From positions 32,001-96,000 of the forward strand of contig JBGAIQ010000001.1 in assembly GCA_044225365.1 (NCBI GenBank): a stretch of DNA of 64,000 nucleotides, written 5' to 3'. Under the pieces are notes generated by a model. The model was not told the origin of the DNA. It made no database searches and saw nothing but the letters and a program-made list of their open reading frames with translations. Below are positions 19,292 through 45,300 of this stretch, piece after piece (position 1 is the stretch's first letter; every line of letters begins with the position of its first letter). Both the position numbers and the translations under genes were made by a program. This DNA is from Planctomycetota bacterium. GTDB taxonomy: Bacteria > Planctomycetota > B15-G4 > JADJEK01.

Positions 19292-19768
19292 ATGCGCTGC
19301 CCATTCTGCTCCGCGAACAACGATCGTGTCATCGACTCGCGAACGTCGGGAGACGCGTTCGTGATTCGTCGCCGACGTGAGTGCATTCAATGTGCGAAGC
19401 GGTTCACGACCTACGAGAAGGTCGAGGAGCCCACACTGCACGTGATCAAGAAGGACGGATCGCGGGTCCCCTTCGATCGCGCCAAGATCATGAACGGCCT
19501 GCTCAAGGCCTGCGAGAAGCGTCCGGTCTCGGTCGATCGGCTCGAAGAAGTCGTGAACCGGATCGAGGCGCAGCTCAACGAGTCGTTCGACAAGGAAGTG
19601 TCTTGTCGGTTCGTCGGCCAGCTCGTGATGAACGCGTTGAAGGAGATCGACGAAGTCGCGTACGTGCGCTTTGCGTCGGTCTACCGCGAGTTCAAGGACA
19701 TCGAGGAGTTCATGCACGAACTCCAACCCCTGCTCGATGCGCGGAGGCTCCCGATCCGTGATTCGTAG
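19292..19768 (+). CDS. nrdR: Transcriptional repressor NrdR
   Basis: MRCPFC, VIDSR, IRRRRECxxCxxRFTTYE, ATP-cone, VAYVRFASVYREF. Confidence 0.98.
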   Translation: MRCPFCSANNDRVIDSRTSGDAFVIRRRRECIQCAKRFTTYEKVEEPTLHVIKKDGSRVPFDRAKIMNGLLKACEKRPVSVDRLEEVVNRIEAQLNESFDKEVSCRFVGQLVMNALKEIDEVAYVRFASVYREFKDIEEFMHELQPLLDARRLPIRDS

Positions 19769-21881
19769 CGCAAGAGTCGTGCGGAAGAGAGACGGCCGCG
19801 AAGTGCCGTTCGAGCAGGCCAAGATCGTGAGCGCGATCTGGAGTGCAGCTCGTTCCGTTGGCGGCGGCGATCGGCTCCTCGCCGAGGAACTCGGTTCCGT
19901 CGTCGCGATGTTCATCGAGCGCGAGTTCCAGGATCGCACGCCGTCGATCGACGATGTCTCCGATCTGATCGAGAAGGTGCTCGTCGAGACGGGTCATGCG
20001 CGCACGGCGAAGGCCTACATCCTCGAGCGGGAGCGACGCGATCGCATCCGTCAAGCATTGCGCGTGCGCGACGACGCCGCGGGTGCGCTCCCGTTCGACG
20101 GCTACACGCGAACGAGTGGAACGCACGCGCATGGGAACCCGCGAGGCGTGCTCGGATTCGGCATATCGCCCGCCGTCGACGCGCATGCGAGGGGGAGCGT
20201 CTCGCCGTGGTCGAAGGCGAAGATCATCGAGGCGTTGATCCTCGAAGCGGAGGTGCCGAACACGGTGGCCGCGGAGATCGCGTCCGAGGTGGAGCGTCGA
20301 GTCTTCGCATCGGGCATCACGCGAATCTCGACCTCATTGGTGCGCGCGCTCGTCGACAACGAGCTCTTCGAGCGCGGCTACACGCGCTGGCTCGATCGGC
20401 AGGGCGTGCTCGGGCTGCCGCGCTACGATCTCGATCGCATGGCCCGCGGGGGCGTCGAACTCGATTCGGCCTCAGCGCACTCGACGCCGTACTTCGGGAC
20501 CGCGCTCGACGGCGAAGTCGCGCGTGCGACGTGGTCGCAGTACTCGCTGCTCGAGATCTACCCGCAGCCCGTCGTCGAAGCGCACTCCGCGGGTCGGATC
20601 CACCTCGGCTGTCTCGCGGCGCCCTCGCGATTCCAGTCGCTCGCGATCGACCTCTCCAAGATCGCGCTCGAACGCCTGGCGCTGCCGTTGCCCCCGCAGC
20701 GGGCGGAGCGAGCGGGTCTGCAGGTGAGCGACCTGGTGCGAGAACCCGAACTGCTCCGCGTCATCGCGGCGCGCGCCACGAGCCTCGGTCACGAACGGAT
20801 CGTCCTCGAGGGGCTCGAGAACGCGATCGGTCGCGAACTCGAATCGGGCGCAGCGCCGCGCGATGTCGCGCGCGGATTCGCTCTCTCTCTTGCGGTGCCC
20901 GCGGGGCCCGAGGGGGTCCAGGGCCGGATCGAACTCGATCTTCCGATCGCGGTCGCGACCGGGTCGCGCGAGGGGCTCGCCGCTTCCGTCGCCTATGCGG
21001 AGTTCGTGCAGGAACTCTTGTCCGCGATCGCCCGCGTGCCGACCTTCCTCGCGCCACCGGCGATCGCGTTCCGTCTCGAGGGAGCCGCAGATGCCTCGGG
21101 CGATGTTCTCGCTGCGATCTCCCTCGCCGAAGTCGATCCCGAGCGCGTGCGGATTCGCGCGGGGCGTCGCATGCCCGGCCTTCCTCCCGTGGTGCCTTTG
21201 CTCGAGCGCGTCGCCGTGAACCTCGCGCATCCGTCGCTGCTCGCACCGAAGGGCGACACGTCGGCGGCGATCGCGCAGATCACGACGGCCATCGAGATCG
21301 CGGCCGAGGCGTGCGAAGCTCGCCTCCGGTTCCTGGCGTCGCTCGTCGGATCCGCGGCACCGCGCGAGCGCGCGGCGGCGATGTTCGGCAGCGACGAGCT
21401 CGCGGTGGGCGGCTTCGAGATCGCCCTCGCCGCGATCGACTCCGCGGCGCGCGCCCAGACTGGAGAATCGGTGGTGCGCGACGAAGGCCGCGAATACGCA
21501 CGCTCGGTCGTGGCCGCCGCGCGCGGCGTCGTCGCTCGCGAGTCCGCGTCGCGGCGCATCCCGATCGTGCTCGCCCTCTGTGACGATCGCGTCGCGCTCT
21601 CCCGTTTCGGCCGCTCGGACGCGGAGCGCTTTCCGCGAACCCGCGATGCCGCGGCCCTGCCACACGACGGCACTCGCTACGTCTATCACGGCGGCGTGCC
21701 GGCGCTCCACGCGGATGCGTCGGAACTGCCGATCGAGAAGATCGCCCGCATCGAGGCCGAGCTGCGCGCTCGCCTCGCTCCGAGCATCGTGACCCTGCCC
21801 TATGCTGCGGTCGAAGACCGCGTTCAGTTCCTGAAGATGATCGACCCGCTCTTGCGGGAGGACCTGCTTCGATGCGCTTGA
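19758..21881 (+). CDS. Tandem ATP-cone protein with a degenerate class III ribonucleotide reductase (NrdD)-like body, apparently catalytically dead
   Basis: ATP-cone 1 (VRKRDGREVPFEQAKI) and cone 2 (PWSKAKIIEALILEA...LVRALVDNELFERG); NrdD-like segments AHSAGRIHL, VAVNL, SRFGRSDAERFP; no C-terminal Zn-ribbon and no RxxGY glycyl-radical loop. Confidence 0.75.
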   Translation: MIRSARVVRKRDGREVPFEQAKIVSAIWSAARSVGGGDRLLAEELGSVVAMFIEREFQDRTPSIDDVSDLIEKVLVETGHARTAKAYILERERRDRIRQALRVRDDAAGALPFDGYTRTSGTHAHGNPRGVLGFGISPAVDAHARGSVSPWSKAKIIEALILEAEVPNTVAAEIASEVERRVFASGITRISTSLVRALVDNELFERGYTRWLDRQGVLGLPRYDLDRMARGGVELDSASAHSTPYFGTALDGEVARATWSQYSLLEIYPQPVVEAHSAGRIHLGCLAAPSRFQSLAIDLSKIALERLALPLPPQRAERAGLQVSDLVREPELLRVIAARATSLGHERIVLEGLENAIGRELESGAAPRDVARGFALSLAVPAGPEGVQGRIELDLPIAVATGSREGLAASVAYAEFVQELLSAIARVPTFLAPPAIAFRLEGAADASGDVLAAISLAEVDPERVRIRAGRRMPGLPPVVPLLERVAVNLAHPSLLAPKGDTSAAIAQITTAIEIAAEACEARLRFLASLVGSAAPRERAAAMFGSDELAVGGFEIALAAIDSAARAQTGESVVRDEGREYARSVVAAARGVVARESASRRIPIVLALCDDRVALSRFGRSDAERFPRTRDAAALPHDGTRYVYHGGVPALHADASELPIEKIARIEAELRARLAPSIVTLPYAAVEDRVQFLKMIDPLLREDLLRCA

Positions 21882-24800
21882 AGAAGATCGAGATCCACGG
21901 CTTCAAGTCCTTCGCGGACAAGACGGACTTCGAGGTCGGCAAGGGCGTGACGTGCCTCGTCGGCCCCAACGGCTGCGGCAAGAGCAACGTCGTCGACGCG
22001 CTCAAGTGGTCCCTCGGTGAGCAGCGCGCTAGCGCGCTCCGCGGCGACTCGATGGCGGACGTCATCTTCAAGGGCAACGGCAATCGCCCGGCGATGGGTT
22101 TTGCCGAAGTCACTCTCATCTTCGACAACGAAGCGGGCGAATTGCCGATCGATCTCCCCGAAGTCGCCGTGACGCGACGGCTCTATCGGAGCGGCGATTC
22201 GGAGTACCTGCTGAATCGGCAGCCCGTGCGTCTGAAGGACGTGCGGGAACTGTTCGTCGATACGGGCCTCGGAGCCAATGCGTACGCCGTGCTCGAGCAG
22301 GGCAAGATCGACGCCGTCCTGCGCGCGAATCCGGTCGATCGGCGCGCGCTCTTCGAAGAAGCGGCGGGCATCCAACGGTTCCGACTGCGCAAGAAGGAAG
22401 CCGCTCGCAAGCTCGAGAAGGTCGATCAGAATCTGTTGCGCGTCGCCGACGTCATGGCGGAACTCGAGAAGCGCGAGCGATCGCTGAAGGTCCAGGCCGG
22501 AAGGGCGCGATCCTACGTGCAGCTCACTGCGCGCCTCACCGAATTGAAGACGGTGCAATTCCTGGTCGCCGGATTCGAGATGGCGCAACGGTGGATGGAA
22601 CTCGTCACGCGCCTCGAGGCCGCACGTCTCGACGACGTGACGAGCGATCAGGCGCTCGTCGCCGCCTCCGCCGAGGTCGAGGCCCGCGACAAGATCGTCG
22701 TCGGCGAGCGCGATCGCGCCGGTGAACTCCGCACGCGCGAAGCTCAGGTCCATGCCGAGCGCGACGGCGCGCGCACTCAGATGCAGGCGCTCGAGATGCG
22801 GCGCGAAGAGTCGGAACGCGCGGCTGCGGATCGTGAGAAGAGGATCGGCGAACTCGACGCCGAGATCGTCGCTCGCGGCCAGGAAGTCGAACAGCGCGAG
22901 GCCGATGTCGCCCGCTTCGAAGGGGAGCTGAAGGACGCGCGCGCGATCGTTGCCGAACGCAAGACTGCGCTCGCGGCCGAGGAGCGCGCCGAGCAGGAAC
23001 GGGCCGCCGAGATCGAGCGTTTGCGGCGTTCGGCCATGCAGGCCGCGCAGCAGGAACTCGAACTCTCGAATCGACTGACCGCCGTCGAGACCCGCGGCCG
23101 CAGTCTGCGGCAGTCGCGAGAACGACTCGTGCGGCGCGAGGCCGAGATCGCGGGCATGCTCGAGAAGGTGCGCATCGATGCCTCCTCGATCGAGAGCAAT
23201 CTCTCCCGTCTCGGGCGAGAGGCGGAAGAGCAGGGCGCCTCGCTCGAGCGCGCGCGCGAGGAACTCGGTGCCCGCCGCACGCGCGAACACGAATTGCGCA
23301 ATGCGATCGCGGAGTTGTCGGCGCAGCGCGCCGGCAAGGTGGCCCGTCGCGATACGCTCGCATCGGTCATCGAGAAGATGGAGGGCGTCGACGAGGGCTC
23401 GCGCATCCTGCTTCGTGCCGCGCGCGACGACAAGGCGCGCCATGGCGGAGTCCTCGGACTCCTCGGCGAGATGTTCACCGTGCCGCGCGAACGAGCACGT
23501 GCGGTGGACGCGGCGCTCGGCGCCCTGGCCGGTGCAATCGTCGTCGAGAACGTCGAGGCTTTGCGACGCAGCGTCGAGTTCCTGCGCGCTCAGGGCAAGG
23601 GAACGGCGACGTTCTTCGTGCTCGACAAGGCGCGCGGACCGTCGAGCACGCAGGGTCCGGGGGAGTCGCTCCTCGAGGGCGTCGATCTCCCGGATCACGT
23701 GGCCCCGTTGTCGATGGCGGTCCTTGGCGGCGCGCGCCTCGTGCGCTCGGAGGACGCGCTGTTCGAGGCGCTCGGCGAGGGTGCGTTCGTCGTCACCGAG
23801 GACGGCATGCGCCTCGACGCGAACGGCGCGTTCCAGGACCGACCGAAGAAGCAAGCGCTCGGATTCGTCGAGCGCAAGGCGGAGCGCGATGAGCTCACGA
23901 AGGAGCTCGTCGTCCTCGAAGAGAAGCTGCATCGGATGGGCGAGGACGAGGCGCGGCTCGCGGGCGAGATCGCCGAGTGGACCGCGACCGTGTCGGAGGC
24001 CGAAGCGCGTCGACGCGCTGTCGAGGCCGGGATCGTGGAGACCCGAAGCGCATCCGAGCGACTGCGCGATCGCGCTCAGATCTTCCGTCGCGAGCTCAAG
24101 GTGAGCGCGCACGAACGCTACGACGTCGAGCGCGAGGAGACTCGCAATCATTCCGAGCGATTCGCGGCGTCCGCTGCGCTTGTCGGCAAGCAGGACGAGC
24201 GCACTGCGCTCGAGGCGAGCCGGATGGCGCTGGTGGCCGCCCGCGAAGAGCGGGAGGCTCTGCTGCAAGCGCTCGTCGAGGCCGCGGCGCAAGCGACGCG
24301 CGAGGTCGTGCGAGTGGAAGAGCGCGCACGTTCGGCCCAATCCGAACTCGCCGTCCTGAAGCGTGGTCTCGACGAACTCTTGCGTGCGCGATCCGATCAG
24401 GAGCGCGAGCGGACGAATCTTCAGGAGCGCGCGGCCCGGGCGACCGCCGACGCGGCGGCCCAGCGCGAGATCGCTGACCGGCTCGCACTCGAAGTCGAAG
24501 CGCTCGTGACCTCGATCGCATCCGCCGATGCCGCCGTCGAGGTGGCGATGTCGGCTTCGCGGGAATCGCGACAAGCCGCTCTCGAAGCCGCGGAGCGTCG
24601 CGAACAGGCGCGGGCGTGTCTCCATCGCCTCGAGATCGAAGAGCGAGAGCTCGACCTCGGCCGTACGAATCTTCGCGCTCGCGCGCAGGAAGAGATCTCT
24701 CTCGACCTCGACACCAAACTGTCGGAATTCGATCCCACGCAATCCCCACCCGCCGAGGTGCTCGCGAGCGAGATCGCGGAACTGCGCGACAAGGTGGCTC

Positions 24801-25429
24801 GACTCGGCAACGTGAATCTCGACGCGATCAACGAACTCGAGGAGGTCGAGCAACGGCTCGAATTCCTCACCAAGGAGCGGTCGGATCTCGACGCCGCGAG
24901 GCGCTCGCTCGAGGACACGATCAAGGAGCTCGATCAGATCTCGAAGGGCAAGTTCGCCGAGACGTTCGAGATCATCCGTGGACACTTCCGTGAGATCTTC
25001 CGCAAGCTGTTCCACGGCGGACGCGCCGACATCATGCTCACCGAGGGAGCGGACGTCCTCGAGGCGGGCGTCGAGATCATCGCGGGCCCGCCCGGCAAGG
25101 ATCCACGGTCGATCACGTTGCTTTCGGGCGGCGAGCGCACGATGACCGCGGTCGGTCTGCTCTTCGCGCTGTTCAAGGCGAAGCCGGCACCGGTCGCTGT
25201 GCTCGACGAAGTCGATGCCGCGCTCGACGAAGCGAACACGGAGCGCTTCTGCGGACTCCTCTCCGAGTTCATTGGCCAGTCCCAGTTCCTGATCGTGACC
25301 CACAGCAAGCGCACCATGTCGTACGCTGACATCATCTTCGGCGTCACGATGCAGGAGAATGGCGTGTCCAAGCGGATCGGGATCCGGCTCGAAGACTACG
25401 AGGACAAGGATCAGGGACAGGTCGCGTAG
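21872..25429 (+). CDS. smc: Chromosome segregation ATPase SMC
   Basis: Walker A GPNGCGKSN, Q-loop, long coiled coils with hinge, LSGGE signature, Walker B/D-loop LDEVDAALD. Confidence 0.97.
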   Translation: MRLKKIEIHGFKSFADKTDFEVGKGVTCLVGPNGCGKSNVVDALKWSLGEQRASALRGDSMADVIFKGNGNRPAMGFAEVTLIFDNEAGELPIDLPEVAVTRRLYRSGDSEYLLNRQPVRLKDVRELFVDTGLGANAYAVLEQGKIDAVLRANPVDRRALFEEAAGIQRFRLRKKEAARKLEKVDQNLLRVADVMAELEKRERSLKVQAGRARSYVQLTARLTELKTVQFLVAGFEMAQRWMELVTRLEAARLDDVTSDQALVAASAEVEARDKIVVGERDRAGELRTREAQVHAERDGARTQMQALEMRREESERAAADREKRIGELDAEIVARGQEVEQREADVARFEGELKDARAIVAERKTALAAEERAEQERAAEIERLRRSAMQAAQQELELSNRLTAVETRGRSLRQSRERLVRREAEIAGMLEKVRIDASSIESNLSRLGREAEEQGASLERAREELGARRTREHELRNAIAELSAQRAGKVARRDTLASVIEKMEGVDEGSRILLRAARDDKARHGGVLGLLGEMFTVPRERARAVDAALGALAGAIVVENVEALRRSVEFLRAQGKGTATFFVLDKARGPSSTQGPGESLLEGVDLPDHVAPLSMAVLGGARLVRSEDALFEALGEGAFVVTEDGMRLDANGAFQDRPKKQALGFVERKAERDELTKELVVLEEKLHRMGEDEARLAGEIAEWTATVSEAEARRRAVEAGIVETRSASERLRDRAQIFRRELKVSAHERYDVEREETRNHSERFAASAALVGKQDERTALEASRMALVAAREEREALLQALVEAAAQATREVVRVEERARSAQSELAVLKRGLDELLRARSDQERERTNLQERAARATADAAAQREIADRLALEVEALVTSIASADAAVEVAMSASRESRQAALEAAERREQARACLHRLEIEERELDLGRTNLRARAQEEISLDLDTKLSEFDPTQSPPAEVLASEIAELRDKVARLGNVNLDAINELEEVEQRLEFLTKERSDLDAARRSLEDTIKELDQISKGKFAETFEIIRGHFREIFRKLFHGGRADIMLTEGADVLEAGVEIIAGPPGKDPRSITLLSGGERTMTAVGLLFALFKAKPAPVAVLDEVDAALDEANTERFCGLLSEFIGQSQFLIVTHSKRTMSYADIIFGVTMQENGVSKRIGIRLEDYEDKDQGQVA

Positions 25430-25516
25430 CAGCGCCACGAGATCATCGTGGCGGGGCCGCGGCGCGCGACCGTAGTACCTGCTTCGCGGCCGCCCTTCAC
25501 CCGCAACTCATCCCAT

Positions 25517-25557
25517 GAAAGAACGAGGTCCGCGACGACGGGAGTCATCGCGGACCT
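25517..25557 (-). terminator. Rho-independent terminator of the minus-strand transcript; may also stop smc readthrough
   Basis: AGGTCCGCGATGAC-TCCC-GTCGTCGCGGACCT followed by CGTTCTTT; the one non-Watson-Crick pair is G-U only on the minus strand. Confidence 0.75.
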
Positions 25558-25651
25558 TGCTGCTTCGTGAAAGTGAGCCAGGAGGGGAACTCCGGGAAAA
25601 GGGGAAGAAGGGGAGAAGAGTTTTACACCGTAGCAGGTAACCCTCTGGCTC
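25517..25651 (-). ncRNA. Candidate ~135-nt small RNA with CU-rich loop and intrinsic terminator
   Basis: Minus strand: TACAAT -10 six nt upstream; GAGCCAGAGGG pairs with CCCTCCTGGCTC; AACTC/GAGTT stem encloses TTCTCCCCTTCTTCCCCTTTTCCCG; 14-bp terminator stem with UCCC loop, then TTCTTT. Confidence 0.65.
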
Positions 25652-25912
25652 GATTGAATTGTAGCGGATCGCGCTTGGGACCCGGTTGTAGGACTCGACT
25701 CCGTAGGTCGATTCGATCGCGTCGATTCGTCGCAATGAACTGCGGACTTCGACGCTCCGTGGGGTGTCACTGCCGTAGCATGCGACTCCGTCGCAACGGA
25801 AGCCAACACAGTAGGGAGCGGATTCGCGGAAACAAGCGACGTCCAAGAAATCTCATCGAATGCAATTCGAAACCCGGTAAACGTGCAGCACGCGCGAAAC
25901 GAAGCGCGACTC

Positions 25913-26842
25913 ATGGCCAAGAACCGATCTGCACTTCGCAATTCCCTGGAGTACGGGGCCGTCGTCGCACTCACATCGACCTTTCGAGTGATGCCACGCC
26001 CCGTCGCGTTCTGGCTCACGGATCGAATCGGAGATCTGGCCTATCTGTGGGATGCGAAGCATCGCCGCGTCGCGATCGAGAACATTGGACGCGTATTTCC
26101 GGAATGGTCTCCAACGCAAGTCCGTCGAGCCGTCCGCCAGGTCTTCCGCAACTTCCTCCGCGTCGCGATCGAGCTTGCGATCCTGCCGGATGAACTCGAG
26201 AAGCGCGGTCTGCGCGATGTCATCGAAATCGTCGGTGAGGAGCACGTGAGGGCCGCATTCGCGTCCGGCAAAGGGGTCATCGTCTACAGCGCTCACCTCG
26301 GCAACTGGGAAGCCATCGCCGCCGCCGGCGAGCCGCTCTCCATGAAGCTGCACTCGGTCGGTCGCGCCCTCGACAACCCTCTCATCGACAAGATGTTGAT
26401 CCAGCATCGGTCGCGCTACGCAAGGTCCGTCGTGCCCAAGGAGGGCGGACTCCGGCGCATCGTACAGTTGCTCCGCGAGGGTTGTGGCGTTGCGATGTTG
26501 CTCGATCAACACGCCGGTCGAGACGGTATCCTGGTGGAATTCCTCGGACGTCCGGCTGCGACGTTTCGCGCTCCCGCGGAACTCGCCTGGAAGTTCGGCC
26601 TGCCCATCCTCGGCGGATTCGGCATCCGAGTCGATTCCTCGACGGACTCGAAGTTGCGGTTCCGCCTGGAGTTCCAGGAACCGCTCCTGCCCGATCCGAC
26701 GCAACCTCGTGAGGATGAAGTGCGGAGGCTCACTCAGTCGATGACGGATCGGATCGCTGTCTACGTGCGCCGTCATCCTGAGCAGTGGAACTGGCTGCAT
26801 CGTCGCTGGCGTGACGTGAAGACCCCGGAGAGTCGCCCTTGA
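25913..26842 (+). CDS. Lipid A late acyltransferase (LpxL/HtrB-like, lysophospholipid acyltransferase family)
   Basis: SAHLGNWE, DNPLID, LLDQH, VEFLG, HPEQWNWLHRRW. Confidence 0.9.
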   Translation: MAKNRSALRNSLEYGAVVALTSTFRVMPRPVAFWLTDRIGDLAYLWDAKHRRVAIENIGRVFPEWSPTQVRRAVRQVFRNFLRVAIELAILPDELEKRGLRDVIEIVGEEHVRAAFASGKGVIVYSAHLGNWEAIAAAGEPLSMKLHSVGRALDNPLIDKMLIQHRSRYARSVVPKEGGLRRIVQLLREGCGVAMLLDQHAGRDGILVEFLGRPAATFRAPAELAWKFGLPILGGFGIRVDSSTDSKLRFRLEFQEPLLPDPTQPREDEVRRLTQSMTDRIAVYVRRHPEQWNWLHRRWRDVKTPESRP

Positions 26843-42165: not shown

Positions 42166-42241
42166 GGGTGCGTAGCTCAGCTGGGAGAGCGCTACGTTCG
42201 CAACGTAGAGGTCGCCAGTTCGATCCTGGTCGCATCCACCA
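42166..42241 (+). tRNA. tRNA-Ala (anticodon CGC)
   Basis: GGGTGCG/CGCATCC acceptor with G3-U70, D-arm AGCTCAGCTGGGAGAGC, anticodon arm CTACG-TTCGCAA-CGTAG, TTCGA T-loop, encoded CCA. Confidence 0.97.
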
Positions 42242-42308: not shown

Positions 42309-45300
42309 ACGTTTCCAGGCTCGGCGCCCCGCGTAGAAGCTGCGGCGAGACGTTCGCGAAAGGTCTCGACGAGTGCGTAGAGCGCGGGGATGACGACGAG
42401 CGTCAGCAAGGTCGACAGCAAGAGACCGCCGATGACGGTCACCGCGAGCGGAGCCTGGAGTTCGGATCCGGCCCATAGCCAGACCGGAAGATGTTGGATG
42501 CCCGGGATCCGTTCGAGCACACCGGTCAGCGGCACGAGGCCGAGGACGGTCGTTCCGGTCGTCATCAAGATGGGGCGGAGGCGAGCTCCCGCGGCTTCGA
42601 CGAGCGCGTCGACGACCGACATCCCGCGCGCTCGCAATTGATTCGTGTAATCGAGCATCACGATGGCGTTCTTGACCACGATTCCCGCGAGCACGACCGC
42701 GCCGATCAGCGCGACGACCGACATCGGGGTGTGGGTCAGGTAGAGCGCGAGGATGCCGCCGACGAGGGCGAGCGGAATCGTCATCATGATGATGAGCGGC
42801 TGGATGATCGATTCGAACTCGGCGGCCATCACGAGATAGACGAGGAAGATCGCGATGAGCGTGACCATCTTCATCTCGTCGAGCGCGCCCCCGATGTCGG
42901 CGCCTTGTCCGCCCGTCGAGCACGTGATGGTCGGGTGTTCGCGTTCGACATCGGACAGGACCCGGCGGATGTCGTTCAGCGCGGATCCGATGTCGAAACC
43001 GCTCGTGCTCGCCGACACCACGGCAGCGCGTTGGCCGCTGATGCGACGGATCTCGGAGGGGCCCTCGACGATCTTCACCTGCGCGACCTGTCGCAGCGGG
43101 ATGGGCGCGGTGGCTCCGAGATCGACCGTGACGCCCGGGAAGAACGTGCGATCGACCTTCTTCGAACTGCCCGTGCTGGTGCCTCCTCCCTCCGAGCCGC
43201 GGTCGAGCGTGTCGGCGAGATCGACGGCACGGCCGCGATTCACGGTGAGCGACAGCAGATCGTCGACGGTCATGACGTCGGACTTGACGCGGATGTCGAC
43301 GCGGCGATCGCCTTCGGCGAAGCGCGTCGAGACGACGCCCTGCACCTGCGCGCGAATTCGATTGCTGATCGCTTCGATGTCGAGGCCGAAGCGCAGCATT
43401 CGCTCGCGATCGAGCGTGAGCAGGATCTCTGGATTCCCGCGACCGATCGTCGAACGAACGTCGGAGAGCTCTGGGATCGCCTGAAGCTGGCGCGTGAGAT
43501 CGACTGCCGCCGCACGTAGCTCCGTGAGGTCTTCGCCGCGGGCTTCGACTGCGAGCGGCGCTTTGATCGAGAAGAGCGTGGGCCGTGAGAAGCGGAATCC
43601 CGTCAGTTCCGCGCGCTGGGAGAGGATCGAGCGGACGTCTTCGATGAGACGTTGCTCGAACTTCGCGCGCTCGGCGGCCGGGATCGAGCCGCTGCCCGTA
43701 CTGAGCTTCAGAAGGATCTTCGCCGTGTGACTGCCCTCGTCGACTCCCGCAACCTCGTCGCGAGCGATGCCGCACGACGAACTGACTTCGGCGATTCCGG
43801 AGACCTTGGAGATCGCATTCTCGACGGGGAGGAGCATCGCCGCGGTTTCCTCGACGGGCGTGCCCACGCGCAGGTCGACATCGACGATCAACTCGCCCTG
43901 GTGCACTTCGGGCAGCATCTCGGATCCGAGTTCGTCGACGAGGCCGTACGTGACGACGCCGATCGCGGTCGCGAAGATCATGAGCGCGACCATGCGCAGG
44001 TTGCTCTTCAGTAGGAATCGCAGGACGGCGGGATACGCCTTCGCGAGGGGCAGGTAGGTGCGATCGAATAAGAACGCGAGGGGAGCTGCCGCGAGAGCCA
44101 GCACGCGGATCGCCAGCGCACCGAGTCCGATCACGGCGTAGATCGCCGCCGCGACCACTCCGAGCATCACCCGCCCGAGGAACTCACAAGCGATCTGCAA
44201 GAGATCGACGGGGAATCGAACGACGCGGCCGATCTTCTCGAGCGCTCCCGTCGACGGAGCGCGATCGCGCAGGGCTCGCACCGCGAGCAGGCCACGCGGC
44301 CGCACGATCGGGCCGAGTAGCGCCCCGAGGAACGCTTTGGGTTGCGCGTAGATCGATCCGCGTTCGTTCCACGCGCCATGCTTTCGCGTCTTCTTCTCCT
44401 CGGCCGTTCCGCTCATGCTCGAGAATTGCGCGGCGAGCACGGGGACGAAGAACAGGGCGACGAAGATCGATGACGCGAGCGCGAACACTACGGTGAGCGC
44501 CTGGTCCTTGAAGATCTGTCCCGCGATGCCGGAGACGAACGCCACCGGGAAGAACACGGCGATCGTCGTCAGCGTCGAGGCGATGACGGCGGCGCCGACT
44601 TCGCGTGTTCCACGCAATGCGCCGCGGGTCGGATCGTCCCCTTCCTCTCGACAACGTACGATCGACTCGAGCACGACGATCGAGTCATCGACGAGCATGC
44701 CGATGCCGAGCGCGAGCCCGCCGAGCGACATGATGTTGAGCGTGGTGTGCGTCGCGAACATGCAGGCGAACGTCGCGATCACCGAGAGCGGGATCGAGAT
44801 CGAGAGCATCGACGTCGCGCCGAGGTTGCGCAGGAAGAGCAGGAGCACGACGACCGAGAGCAGACCGCCGAGTAGACCGGCGCCCTTGACTTCCTCGATC
44901 GCGTTCTCGATGAAGACCGATTGATCGGAGAGCACGCGGGCTTCGATGCCGCGAGGAAGCTTGGAGACGATCGTGTCCTGGGCCCGCTTCTTCCGCTCCG
45001 CGAGGTCCCGCAGCTTGAGGACGGCGGCAGGTTCCTGCGGGCGGGACTTCGCATCGTCCTTCGTCCCGGGGCTCGCGGAGGTCGCGGGTGCGTCCTTCTC
45101 GAGTTTCAGCAATTCAGCGCTGAGGAGCTTCTCGGGATCGGGTTGTTTTCCCGACTCGATCTCCGCCAGGAACTTCCGATCCTCGTCGCTGCCGAGGAGG
45201 CTTGTGCGCACTGCTTTGGCGAGGTCGACGATGTTCGCATCGGCCTCGCGGAAGACTTGCAGCTCGACACTCTCACGTCCGGCGACGCGGGTGATCACGT

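Follow-up and report, generated by a model that had tools for sequence, protein, structure and literature searches.

C-rich-loop small RNAs (sRNAs) of Gram-positive bacteria pair directly with mRNAs without Hfq. RsaE/RoxS of Firmicutes have unpaired UCCC/CCCC motifs, and the cuckoo/CcsR sRNAs of Alphaproteobacteria are present as sibling copies with pyrimidine-rich hairpin loops and a hallmark anti-Shine-Dalgarno motif, CCUCCUCCC. More generally, multiple sibling copies per genome are typical of trans-acting sRNAs. Yfr1 of cyanobacteria is a short, phylum-wide RNA in which an ultraconserved unpaired sequence lies between variable stems. One report describes the 6C sRNA (B11) as binding several mRNAs via C-rich loops with no RNA chaperone (PMC6486639). 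Here we describe a locus of a Planctomycetota bacterium, inside a window of 64,000 nucleotides (i.e., the whole stretch of DNA that was analysed), which from sequence comparisons is very probably a real, functional RNA gene: a standalone small non-coding RNA belonging to an uncatalogued Planctomycetota family.

As read from the sequence, its fold and a terminator scan, the unit occupies about 135 nt of the minus strand (25651-25517) and comprises an 11-bp closing stem, a three-way junction, a G-free, CU-rich loop of 23 nt, and a 14-bp terminator with its U-tract. The conserved core, that is, the three-way junction (P1, P2, P3) and the CU-rich loop, is the stretch matched by our covariance model (25573..25653, minus strand; model R1, 86.6 bits, E 7.6e-15, at G000:C95:57573-57653); it is 81-97% identical to its counterparts from other genera and families, and the flanks do not align. 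In the fold, the 5' strand of P1, GAGCCAGAGGG (25641..25651), pairs with 25586-25583 and 25581-25575, so that C25582 is bulged from the 3' strand, CCCU-C-CUGGCUC (25575..25586). P2, a small variable hairpin placed by alignment A1 (25626..25639; UACC, loop, GGUG), is formed at this locus by the pairs A25638-U25627, C25637-G25628 and C25636-G25629; among homologues the first of these is A-U, G-U or U-A, and pair 16-30 of A1 is represented by 12 GC, 12 GU, 3 UA and 2 AU. Other genomes have longer P2 stems, some of them GNRA-capped. In P3, AACUCU (25622-25617) pairs with GGAGUU (25593-25588), and the apical loop that it closes, UCUCCCCUUCUUCCCCUUUUCCC (25594..25616), contains neither G nor A, is unpaired in the minimum free energy fold and, being G-free, cannot fold back. 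This loop holds UCCCC twice and UCCC once, with C tracts spaced about 8-9 nt apart; CCUCC is absent. On the plus strand the locus reads as four G tracts in an arrangement compatible with a G-quadruplex.

These features bear on a preliminary description of the locus, which had proposed a structured non-coding RNA on the minus strand with an 11-bp closing stem and a 14-bp terminator with a UCCC loop. Both stems were found, and the fold, the covariation and the G-U versus A-C counts given below all agree with its choice of strand and its view of the gene as non-coding. Two details needed correction: there is indeed a small hairpin at the junction, but the covarying pairs in A1 show its pairing to be ACC/GGU rather than TTAC/GTAA, and the CU-rich loop is present but spans 23 nt, the earlier count of 25 having arisen because a U-G pair was left open.

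A 159-nt stretch across the locus folds at -60.2 kcal/mol, compared with -40.1 ± 3.9 for 200 shuffles, none of which was as good (z -5.2); for the opposite strand the z value is -3.7. Across the 31 distinct sequences of A1, 90.9% of the cells are paired and 14 of the 22 pairs have changed on both sides, as against 7.7 ± 1.5 pairs in shuffled alignments (0/500 as high) and at most 62% paired cells in slid controls. Compensatory changes extend to 21/22 pairs in A2 (46 distinct sequences) and to all 22 in A3, which consists of 66 distinct metagenome and viral sequences outside model building. The 13 pairs of P1 include 11 (A1), 12 (A2) and 13 (A3) that changed on both sides, and P3 has compensatory changes at 6/6 pairs in both A2 and A3. 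G-U cells outnumber A-C cells by 65 to 15 in A1 and by 82 to 23 in A2, which identifies the minus strand as the RNA strand. One homologue, L015, was omitted from A1 since MAFFT left its 5' stem unplaced (the model accommodates it by an insertion and scores it at 79.3 bits), and 4 of 34 pattern matches in genome contigs (L043, L059, L061, L065) were discarded as low-complexity or unstructured chance matches. The homologue search and covariation analysis that had been suggested as a check uncovered a family whose main copy lies beside smc and whose stems show compensatory changes in all three alignments.

The loop is nearly invariant in the family. The stretch CCUUCUUCCCCUUUUCCC is kept in matches from other Planctomycetota families and in phage copies, and about 20 nt of the loop are unchanged between families with about 44% identity in their orthologous proteins; since several searches demanded the loop sequence, its near-invariance is partly by construction. 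Junction residues are conserved too (GGUUG...GUAAAAC). Overall the conservation is RNA-like, with compensatory changes in the stems and non-aligning flanks, and operates at the level of nucleotides, not codons. Three mechanical open reading frames overlap the site, two of them on the minus strand (112 aa and 202 aa) and the third, of 208 aa, on the plus strand; neither the 202-aa nor the 208-aa frame has a Pfam match.

A -10-like hexamer, TACAAT, can be read directly on the minus strand 6 nt upstream of the closing stem (25658..25663), as the preliminary description had noted, yet it is absent from the closest relatives (L002-L011), and a scan of 25000-26300 returned no promoter-like site and no -35 element beside TACAAT. 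Over the family, a TAnnnT whose last base lies 2-16 nt before the model start accompanies 21/46 distinct copies, compared with 1/46 in a control window, and f3 copies have TTTGCC-N17-TATCCT upstream. At the other end, the terminator scan found an intrinsic terminator (25516..25557, minus strand) in which the 14-bp stem and UCCC loop (25557-25526) are followed by CGUUCUUUCA. By the criteria of a custom script, 15/17 orthologues (L001-L016 and L054) have at the same place a hairpin and T-tract of their own, unrelated in sequence; over all copies, terminators number 20/47 versus 12/47 in an antisense control. A separate terminator lies downstream of the element in f1 and f5 copies, and in phage copies and many f3 copies a U-rich run directly follows the closing stem. 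The predicted length of the RNA is about 135 nt at this locus, and about 85 nt in copies with the U-tract immediately after the closing stem. A search of sequencing runs with 25000-26300 gave no RNA run.

The gene lies between smc (21872..25429, plus strand, convergent with the RNA; Pfam SMC_N 2.3e-67 and SMC_hinge) and a lipid A biosynthesis acyltransferase-like gene (25883..26842, plus strand, divergent from it; Pfam Lip_A_acyltrans 3.7e-46, with an alternative start ATG at 25914). The main copy occupies this same interval in 25 genomes, and in 24 of them smc and/or the acyltransferase gene are read from the other strand, with nothing but smc antisense downstream on the RNA strand; in the single inverted case (L006) the element still has its own terminator. 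By eye, the acyltransferase leader offers the loop a 5-bp match only. The possession of a terminator, together with an orientation against the neighbours in 24/25 genomes, indicates a standalone unit, and the earlier suggestion to this effect was sound.

The locus also stands apart from catalogued RNAs. With Rfam 15 at gathering thresholds, the whole window yields only a tRNA, at 42166-42238; when 25200-26000 was searched at E up to 10, the only matches were sodF_sRNA (20.7 of 46 bits), flg-Rhizobiales (19 of 55) and ROSE_3 (15.4 of 43). We dismiss all three as chance matches far below the gathering score: the first two match the plus strand at the terminator hairpin and at the purine-rich stretch complementary to the loop, and ROSE_3 falls on the minus strand inside smc (25267-25350). 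Phage and distant copies had no Rfam match at E up to 1, and ARAGORN predicted no tRNA or tmRNA gene in the locus itself (L001) or in 13 phage loci. The cmscan check thus leaves the locus with no family match, in agreement with the prior impression that it was not a tRNA, SRP, 6S, tmRNA or RNase P RNA. Three protein families associated with RNA partners were sought in the genome, which is 94.3% complete: Hfq (PF17209; controls matched in 5 reference genomes), CsrA (PF02599) and Ro60/TROVE (PF05731) each had 0 matches. The loop, having no G, also lacks the GGA motifs of CsrB/RsmZ-type sponges, and Y RNA and YrlA had no Rfam match. A plus-strand reading, as an acyltransferase leader or a purine-rich CsrA-type RNA, was rejected on the G-U versus A-C counts, the strand of the terminator and the lack of a CsrA gene.

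The family is present in 28/42 genomes of the order, at 1-4 copies per genome (f1 11/11, f5 5/5, f3 10/16, f2 1/1 and f4 0/8), and in 14 of 151 genomes sampled phylum-wide, 9 of which lie outside the order. Sibling copies are dispersed and not tandem; in the genome studied here a paralogue on contig C63 has a loop enlarged to about 53 nt, in which CCC tracts recur at intervals of about 8 nt. The loop is present in at least 119 metagenome contigs, and among the matches listed 63 of 80 such loci fit the model. We also observed the element in viruses: of 13 IMG/VR contigs with the loop, 11 match the model, and five of these contigs are complete phage genomes. The phage carriers belong to at least two unrelated lineages, and two of the copies (L218 and L223) have been reduced to a plain stem with the same loop. 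A search of GenBank phages with a phage copy and its flanks gave no match. The phage-borne copies are a new observation of this work.

The longest arm of the three-way junction presents a 23-nt, C/U-only loop, which we hypothesize to be the working surface of the molecule. In the most likely mode, the loop would pair directly with purine-rich (G/A) single-stranded stretches of a few mRNAs, at or near their ribosome-binding sites and without Hfq; phage copies would then impose the same regulation on the host. A base-pairing regulatory sRNA is our best overall explanation, offered tentatively, at a little under an even chance; on the premise that the RNA gene is real, our analysis brings it close to even. 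Base pairing is favoured because the loop is unpaired and G-free and because the Shine-Dalgarno sites of this genome are purine-rich and GGAG-type (peak at -13 to -9; the tail of the 16S rRNA reads CACCUCCUUUCU). The lack of Hfq, CsrA and Ro genes fits chaperone-independent pairing by C-rich sequence, and the several sibling copies per genome were counted in favour of a trans-acting sRNA.

Searches for targets of such pairing returned null results. The preliminary description had portrayed the loop as anti-Shine-Dalgarno-like and had proposed target prediction as a check, which we ran as duplex and complement tests over 3302 predicted start regions of this genome, with 30 to 50 same-composition shuffled loops as controls; the gene calls used are crude (ORFs were chosen by a GC3-based method, and each start was set at the first ATG). 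The mean duplex energy of the loop with start regions was -9.34, versus -9.73 ± 0.45 for shuffled loops; sites at or below -14 kcal/mol numbered 529 versus 593 ± 90; and exact complements of at least 7 nt in the interval -25..+5 numbered 105 versus 118 ± 37, none of them reaching 10 nt. Targeting was not conserved: among 465 reciprocal-best orthologue pairs shared with 2.0 Mb of one f3-family genome, 4 fell in the top 10% of both genomes versus 3.5 ± 1.4 expected from shuffles, 28/60 of which equalled the observed value. No paralogous gene family was enriched as a target (best p 0.027, uncorrected, for clusters of at least 6 members). PEP-CTERM genes were rejected as a target family that could account for the RNA here: a single PEP-CTERM match in this genome exceeds the cut-off, and regular-expression scans gave none. 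Start regions, orthologues and gene families were alike in giving no signal and, CCUCC being absent from the loop, the anti-Shine-Dalgarno label is so far not supported. Complements of 11 and 12 nt are in excess genome-wide (96 and 49, versus 59 and 19 for a reversed control) because the count includes the RNA's own copies, read on the antisense strand; these account for all of the long complements, so we discarded long antisense targets. Triplex targets were set aside too, as the reversed control, which is equivalent to a parallel-triplex target, shows no excess. An rRNA partner was likewise rejected: the best duplexes are -23.2 with 16S and -20.7 with ITS plus 23S rRNA, versus -22.9 ± 1.9 and -22.8 ± 1.9 for shuffled loops. 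The target tests have little power to detect a small regulon, and trans-acting base pairing may be compatible with these results. The near-invariance of about 20 nt, the conserved junction residues and the hairpin-only phage versions are a separate argument against base pairing, in that they exceed what a 6-8-nt seed would need.

These same features count for a decoy or sponge, a reading that we consider less likely: the closed, G-free loop would be a high-affinity platform for a host pyrimidine-reading factor (Rho via its YC-binding sites, S1, or a cold-shock-domain or KH protein), which the host would titrate with the RNA and the phage would disable. About 20 loop nucleotides are unchanged across families and among phages from two or more unrelated lineages, junction nucleotides are conserved, L218 and L223 keep only the stem and loop, and start regions are no more complementary to the loop than to shuffled loops. 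The C-tract spacing in the main copy and the enlarged loop of the C63 paralogue would suit such a platform, although that spacing was judged by eye on few sequences. Rho is described as reading successive CC or UC dinucleotides, six at most (PMC13323073), and Rho genes are present in 40/42 genomes of the order. On the other hand, the binding partner is only hypothetical; a 23-nt loop, with its roughly three C tracts, falls short of what a Rho hexamer requires; and the co-occurrence of Rho or RRM proteins with the RNA has no clean pattern: Rho is present in 7/8 f4 genomes, which are RNA-negative, and in RNA-less f3 genomes, and RRM_1 is found in 8/8 f4 genomes but is missing from three RNA-positive ones (G025, G034 and G038). 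It is also conceivable, though improbable, that the loop is not an antisense seed but a trap for a host C/U-reading machine, foremost Rho, which would bind the YC tracts and be unable to thread the closed loop. Were this so, the host would tune its transcription surveillance with the RNA and lytic Planctomycetota phages would use it to switch surveillance off; it would represent an RNA-based anti-termination or anti-defence decoy common to host and virus.

We give little credence to a cis-acting element, i.e., a structured terminator, attenuator or antiterminator that acts on its own transcript. In three annotated phages the element does sit within rows of genes with the same orientation as its neighbours, in one of them with the next start codon just 8 nt downstream, and the U-rich run right after the closing stem of phage and many f3 copies would befit a terminator. 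Yet in 24/25 syntenic hosts the element faces away from its neighbours with only smc antisense beyond it, a separate terminator follows the f1 and f5 copies, and a terminator needs neither an invariant 20-nt loop nor a conserved three-way junction. It is very improbable that the element is no RNA at all but a signal in the DNA itself (a site bound by protein, or a single-stranded structure for replication or packaging) or a short coding frame: the plus-strand G tracts, the placement in the replication modules of two phages and the mechanical frames could be so read, but on one strand G-U is four times as frequent as A-C and the element is flanked by promoter-like and terminator signals, and the conservation, with compensatory stems, is not codon-level, the 202-aa and 208-aa frames being without a Pfam match.

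Planctomycetota form a large and environmentally widespread phylum; our literature search found no functionally studied small RNA from it, and none with this loop. As an RNA candidate the family is well supported, by strong covariation, a fixed address beside smc across the order, siblings, and relatives in other families. Any explanation of this RNA must cover the complete phage genomes that carry copies: that at least two phage lineages share loop and scaffold suggests that the loop contacts something worth phage coding space. The family therefore offers a handle both on post-transcriptional control in Planctomycetota and on host takeover by their almost unstudied phages.

With a base-pairing regulatory sRNA as our preferred reading, the comparison with known systems can be made more precise. 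Like LhrC1-5 of Listeria, the family is multi-copy with a CU-rich loop or seed. It shares with the cuckoo/CcsR sRNAs pyrimidine-rich hairpin loops and the presence of several siblings in a genome, but CCUCCUCCC and CCUCC are absent from the loop, there is no Rfam match, and cuckoo/CcsR copies are tandem whereas those described here are dispersed. UCCCC (twice) and UCCC (once) recall the motifs of RsaE/RoxS, from which this RNA differs in architecture and phylum, in the lack of an Rfam match, and in a complementarity to ribosome-binding-site regions that is not above shuffled controls. We know of no phage-borne copies of 6C, and in this respect the two families part. The 6C sRNA of Mycobacterium and other Actinobacteria, as described, is like the present RNA small and standalone with C-rich, G-free hairpin loops, and its chaperone-free binding is paralleled here by a genome in which no Hfq gene was found; on the other hand, 6C belongs to another phylum, gave no match here in cmscan at E up to 10, and displays two short C loops on two hairpins as opposed to the single long CU loop that the three-way junction carries here. 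With Yfr1 the likeness is one of design, an invariant unpaired stretch set between variable stems: sequence and fold are unrelated, and the invariant stretch of the Planctomycetota RNA is about twice as long and is found in phages as well.

The 453-bp gap between smc (21872-25429, plus strand; Pfam SMC_N, 2.3e-67) and a lipid A acyltransferase-like gene (25883-26842, plus strand; Lip_A_acyltrans, 3.7e-46) holds the element on the minus strand. Reading that strand directly, TACAAT (25663-25658) precedes the P1 closing stem, whose 5′ strand, 25651-25641, is paired to 25586-25583 and 25581-25575 around a single bulged C; then come a small hairpin, P2 (25639-25626), and the P3 hairpin (25622-25617 with 25593-25588), the loop of which, UCUCCCCUUCUUCCCCUUUUCCC (25616-25594), is free of G and A. 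A 17-nt linker leads from the P1 3′ strand to a terminator (25557-25526; 14-bp stem, UCCC loop) followed by CGUUCUUUCA; because this hairpin folds on both strands, it could end smc transcripts too. The minimum free energy of the 159-nt stretch is -60.2 kcal/mol, vs -40.1 ± 3.9 in shuffles (z -5.2), and its opposite strand folds with z -3.7. We also observed, on the plus strand, a short hairpin, CGCCACGAGAUCAUCGUGGCG (25434-25454), 5 nt past the smc stop codon and without a U-tract, and a long open frame (19641-21881) immediately 5′ of smc.

The element is a conserved family of predicted RNAs rather than a chance fold. By DNA search, its 77-nt core recurs at 81-97% identity in 25/41 related genomes, with unalignable flanks; in several genomes there are second copies with wholly different closing-stem sequences in which pairing is retained. 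Exact matches to the loop in contigs, limited to one genome per species, gave 34 loci, 30 of which have the same architecture: their titles are mostly those of Planctomycetota, Phycisphaerales or Phycisphaeraceae MAGs, two read just ‘bacterium’, and one, on a 1.3-kb contig, reads Ignavibacteriae. We discarded the remaining four as chance matches. In a MAFFT alignment of copies (A1; 32 rows, 31 distinct sequences), 90.9% of cells are paired (shuffles, 83.5%) and 14 of 22 pairs have both-sided changes (shuffles, 7.7 ± 1.5); no shuffle among 500 did as well, and with the partners slid out of register pairing was at most 62%. Two larger alignments consist of matches to R1, the covariance model of the element: A2 (50 matches, 46 distinct sequences) has 91.6% of cells paired and both-sided changes in 21/22 pairs, and A3 (74 metagenome and viral matches, 66 distinct sequences, none used in model building) has 85.4% and 22/22. 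Both favour the structure because they are fitted to the model; their slid controls (at most 55% and 49%, respectively) argue that the covariation signal is real. The preliminary description's account of the minus-strand fold was accurate, except in the register of P2: it had paired TTAC with GTAA, which is ruled out by covariation of (A/G/U)CC with GG(U/U/A). Having the loop counts in a candidate's favour in BLAST, the pattern scans and the model alike, so relatives with divergent loops would escape, and for the same reason the invariance of the loop is partly ascertained.

The strand that had been proposed for the RNA is upheld by an excess of G-U over A-C cells (65 vs 15 in A1; 82 vs 23 in A2). 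By the criteria of our own script, a hairpin and T-tract of unrelated sequence lie 3′ of the core in 15/17 orthologues (loci L001-L016 and L054), and in 20/47 over all copies, vs 12/47 in an antisense control; copies in family f3 of the order and in phages have no separate terminator, and a T-rich run directly follows their GC-rich closing stem. On the upstream side, a TAnnnT ending 2-16 nt 5′ of the model start is found in 21/46 distinct copies, vs 1/46 in a control window, and f3 copies have a promoter-like TTTGCC-N17-TATCCT. Since such a hexamer was not found in the closest relatives (L002-L011), and a generic promoter scan of the window gave no promoter-like site, the candidate promoter of the window copy is TACAAT alone. 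Just 5′ of the closing stem, L003, L004, L007, L010 and L011 have short direct repeats (CGACAACA twice, CCCTCAAGAACAACTG twice and AGCCAGA three times, the last AGCCAGA being the P1 strand itself).

The locus is one member of a real, new and widely distributed structured family, a predicted RNA with an exposed, pyrimidine-only loop. R1 finds three clear copies in its own genome (86.6, 73 and 44.9 bits) and two weak ones (27.8 and 24.7 bits). One paralogue (C63:48634-48742, plus strand; L069:1501-1609) has a loop grown to ~53 nt, with CCC tracts about every 8 nt in UUUCCCUA-like units, a promoter-like TTGCGG-N17-CATACT and its own terminator. Among 42 genomes sampled from this order only, 28 have matches (families f1, 11/11; f5, 5/5; f3, 10/16; f2, 1/1; f4, 0/8), as do 14/151 genomes sampled phylum-wide, nine of them outside the order and from five other families. 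These distant copies retain GGUUG-P2-GUAAAAC-P3 and have the loop CUCUCCUUCUUCCCCUUUUCCC or, in one family, UCCACCUCAUCCCUAUUCUCC.

Members of the family are found on host chromosomes and in complete phage genomes alike. Scans for the loop pattern hit 13 IMG/VR contigs and at least 119 from metagenomes, 80 of the latter being taken as loci; R1 fits 11/13 viral loci and 63/80 among the metagenome loci listed. Five viral records that we queried are 41-73 kb long and each rated 100% complete, four with direct terminal repeats. Three phage genomes (G186, G187 and G190) were analysed whole (124 ORFs vs PHROGs): each encodes a large terminase, a portal protein and a major head protein, and no integrase family was found with an E-value of 1e-5 or lower. 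G190 differs from the G186/G187 pair in both its terminase and its portal family, and therefore at least two phage lineages are involved. In the phage copies the three-way junction is complete, the loop reads GACUCUCCUUCUUCCCCUUUUCCC, and a U-run comes immediately 3′ of P1; neither a tRNA nor an Rfam family was found in their regions, and a search of GenBank phages with them was without match. Two viral loci (L218:131-190 and L223:135-189) present the identical invariant loop on a minimal, plain 13-bp hairpin, without P2 or junction.

The loop had been read as an anti-Shine-Dalgarno seed, a reading that found no support in our target tests. The 16S 3′ end of this genome is GGAUCACCUCCUUUCU. 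With a crude gene caller we predicted 3685 ORFs, 3302 with a usable first ATG; a clear peak of purine motifs between -13 and -9 and enriched AGGAGG, AAGGAG and GGAGGA hexamers indicate that SD sites are in use and that many predicted starts are right. RNAduplex of the loop against -35..+15 of the 3302 starts gave a mean of -9.34, vs -9.73 ± 0.45 for 30 shuffled loops, with 529 sites at or below -14 kcal/mol (593 ± 90); exact complements of at least 7 nt in -25..+5 numbered 105 (118 ± 37 in 50 shuffles), and none reached 10 nt. Against 2.0 Mb of a same-loop f3 genome (465 reciprocal-best pairs, median identity 44%), four pairs ranked among the top 10% in each of the two genomes, vs 3.5 ± 1.4 in shuffles, of which 28/60 did no worse; clusters of at least six paralogues were not enriched as targets (best p 0.027, uncorrected), and rRNA complementarity was at the level of shuffled loops. 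None of the start-region, orthologue-pair or gene-family tests gave a signal, and the loop has no CCUCC core. The results speak against the loop masking SD sites in general, but leave room for a regulon limited to a few tens of genes. The strongest complements genome-wide are the antisense strands of the element's own copies, plus one locus on contig C22. There, at ~44,880-45,060 (plus strand, outside the window), a CU-rich unit, CUUCUCUCCCCCUUCUCCCUUUUCCCGG, has a different scaffold, with a 13-bp hairpin and U8 3′, this U8 terminator being on the strand opposite to the complement match; the unit may represent a second type of CU-rich sRNA. We tentatively regard the element as a candidate base-pairing regulator of purine-rich mRNA sites, a reading to which we give slightly less than an even chance.

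It is possible, if doubtful, that the element is instead a putative decoy for a protein or machine. This idea arises because Rho, according to one source (PMC13323073), targets pyrimidine-rich RNA and recognises as many as six interspersed CC or UC dinucleotides. Rho is present in 40/42 genomes of the order; Rho_RNA_bind has two matches in most f1, f2, f3 and f5 genomes, f3 genomes without the element included, and one match in 6/8 f4 genomes. The matches in the window's own genome are at C17:7678-7899 and C20:30547-30771, and one of the two falls inside an open frame of unusual length (861 aa). Searches of this 94%-complete genome for Hfq, CsrA and TROVE were negative (controls matched reference genomes). 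RRM_1 proteins are encoded twice here (C63:127537-127746 and C84:103699-103914) and in 33/42 genomes of the order, and do not track the element: they occur in 8/8 element-free f4 genomes and are absent from element-positive G025, G034 and G038. Something else altogether takes what probability the named readings leave. That the element is a cis-acting module is improbable. Such a role would fit the phages, where it is co-oriented with neighbour genes in G186 and G187 (flanked by genes for helicase and for primase or resolvase) and in G190 (two genes 5′ of the small terminase). Against it, of the 25 genomes with one copy between the smc 3′ end and/or the acyltransferase gene, 24 have that copy on the opposite strand. 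Non-syntenic copies have unrelated contexts. The sole inverted syntenic copy (L006:1499-1578, genome G001) is co-directional with its two neighbours, smc and the acyltransferase gene, and still ends in a terminator of its own.

We found no account of the element in the literature searched on Planctomycetes and Phycisphaerae small or non-coding RNAs and on candidate structured RNA motifs in general. In a table of a 2010 motif survey, ‘Rhodopirellula-1’ is the one name given for Planctomycetota (PMC2864571), and the passages on ncRNAs in a P. limnophila essential-gene study treat them in generic terms only (PMC10632474). As had been anticipated for a novel RNA, no Rfam 15 family matches the window locus, the phage copies or the distant copies. 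RsaE/RoxS, the cuckoo/CcsR RNAs and Yfr1 are C-rich-loop sRNAs whose features bring them near the element in working principle. Also among the nearest is 6C, another C-rich-loop sRNA (PMC6486639). In contrast to 6C, RsaE/RoxS, cuckoo/CcsR and Yfr1, the element is without a CCUCC anti-SD core, bears on its three-way junction just one long pyrimidine loop, ~20 nt of which are near-invariant, and is also carried by phages.
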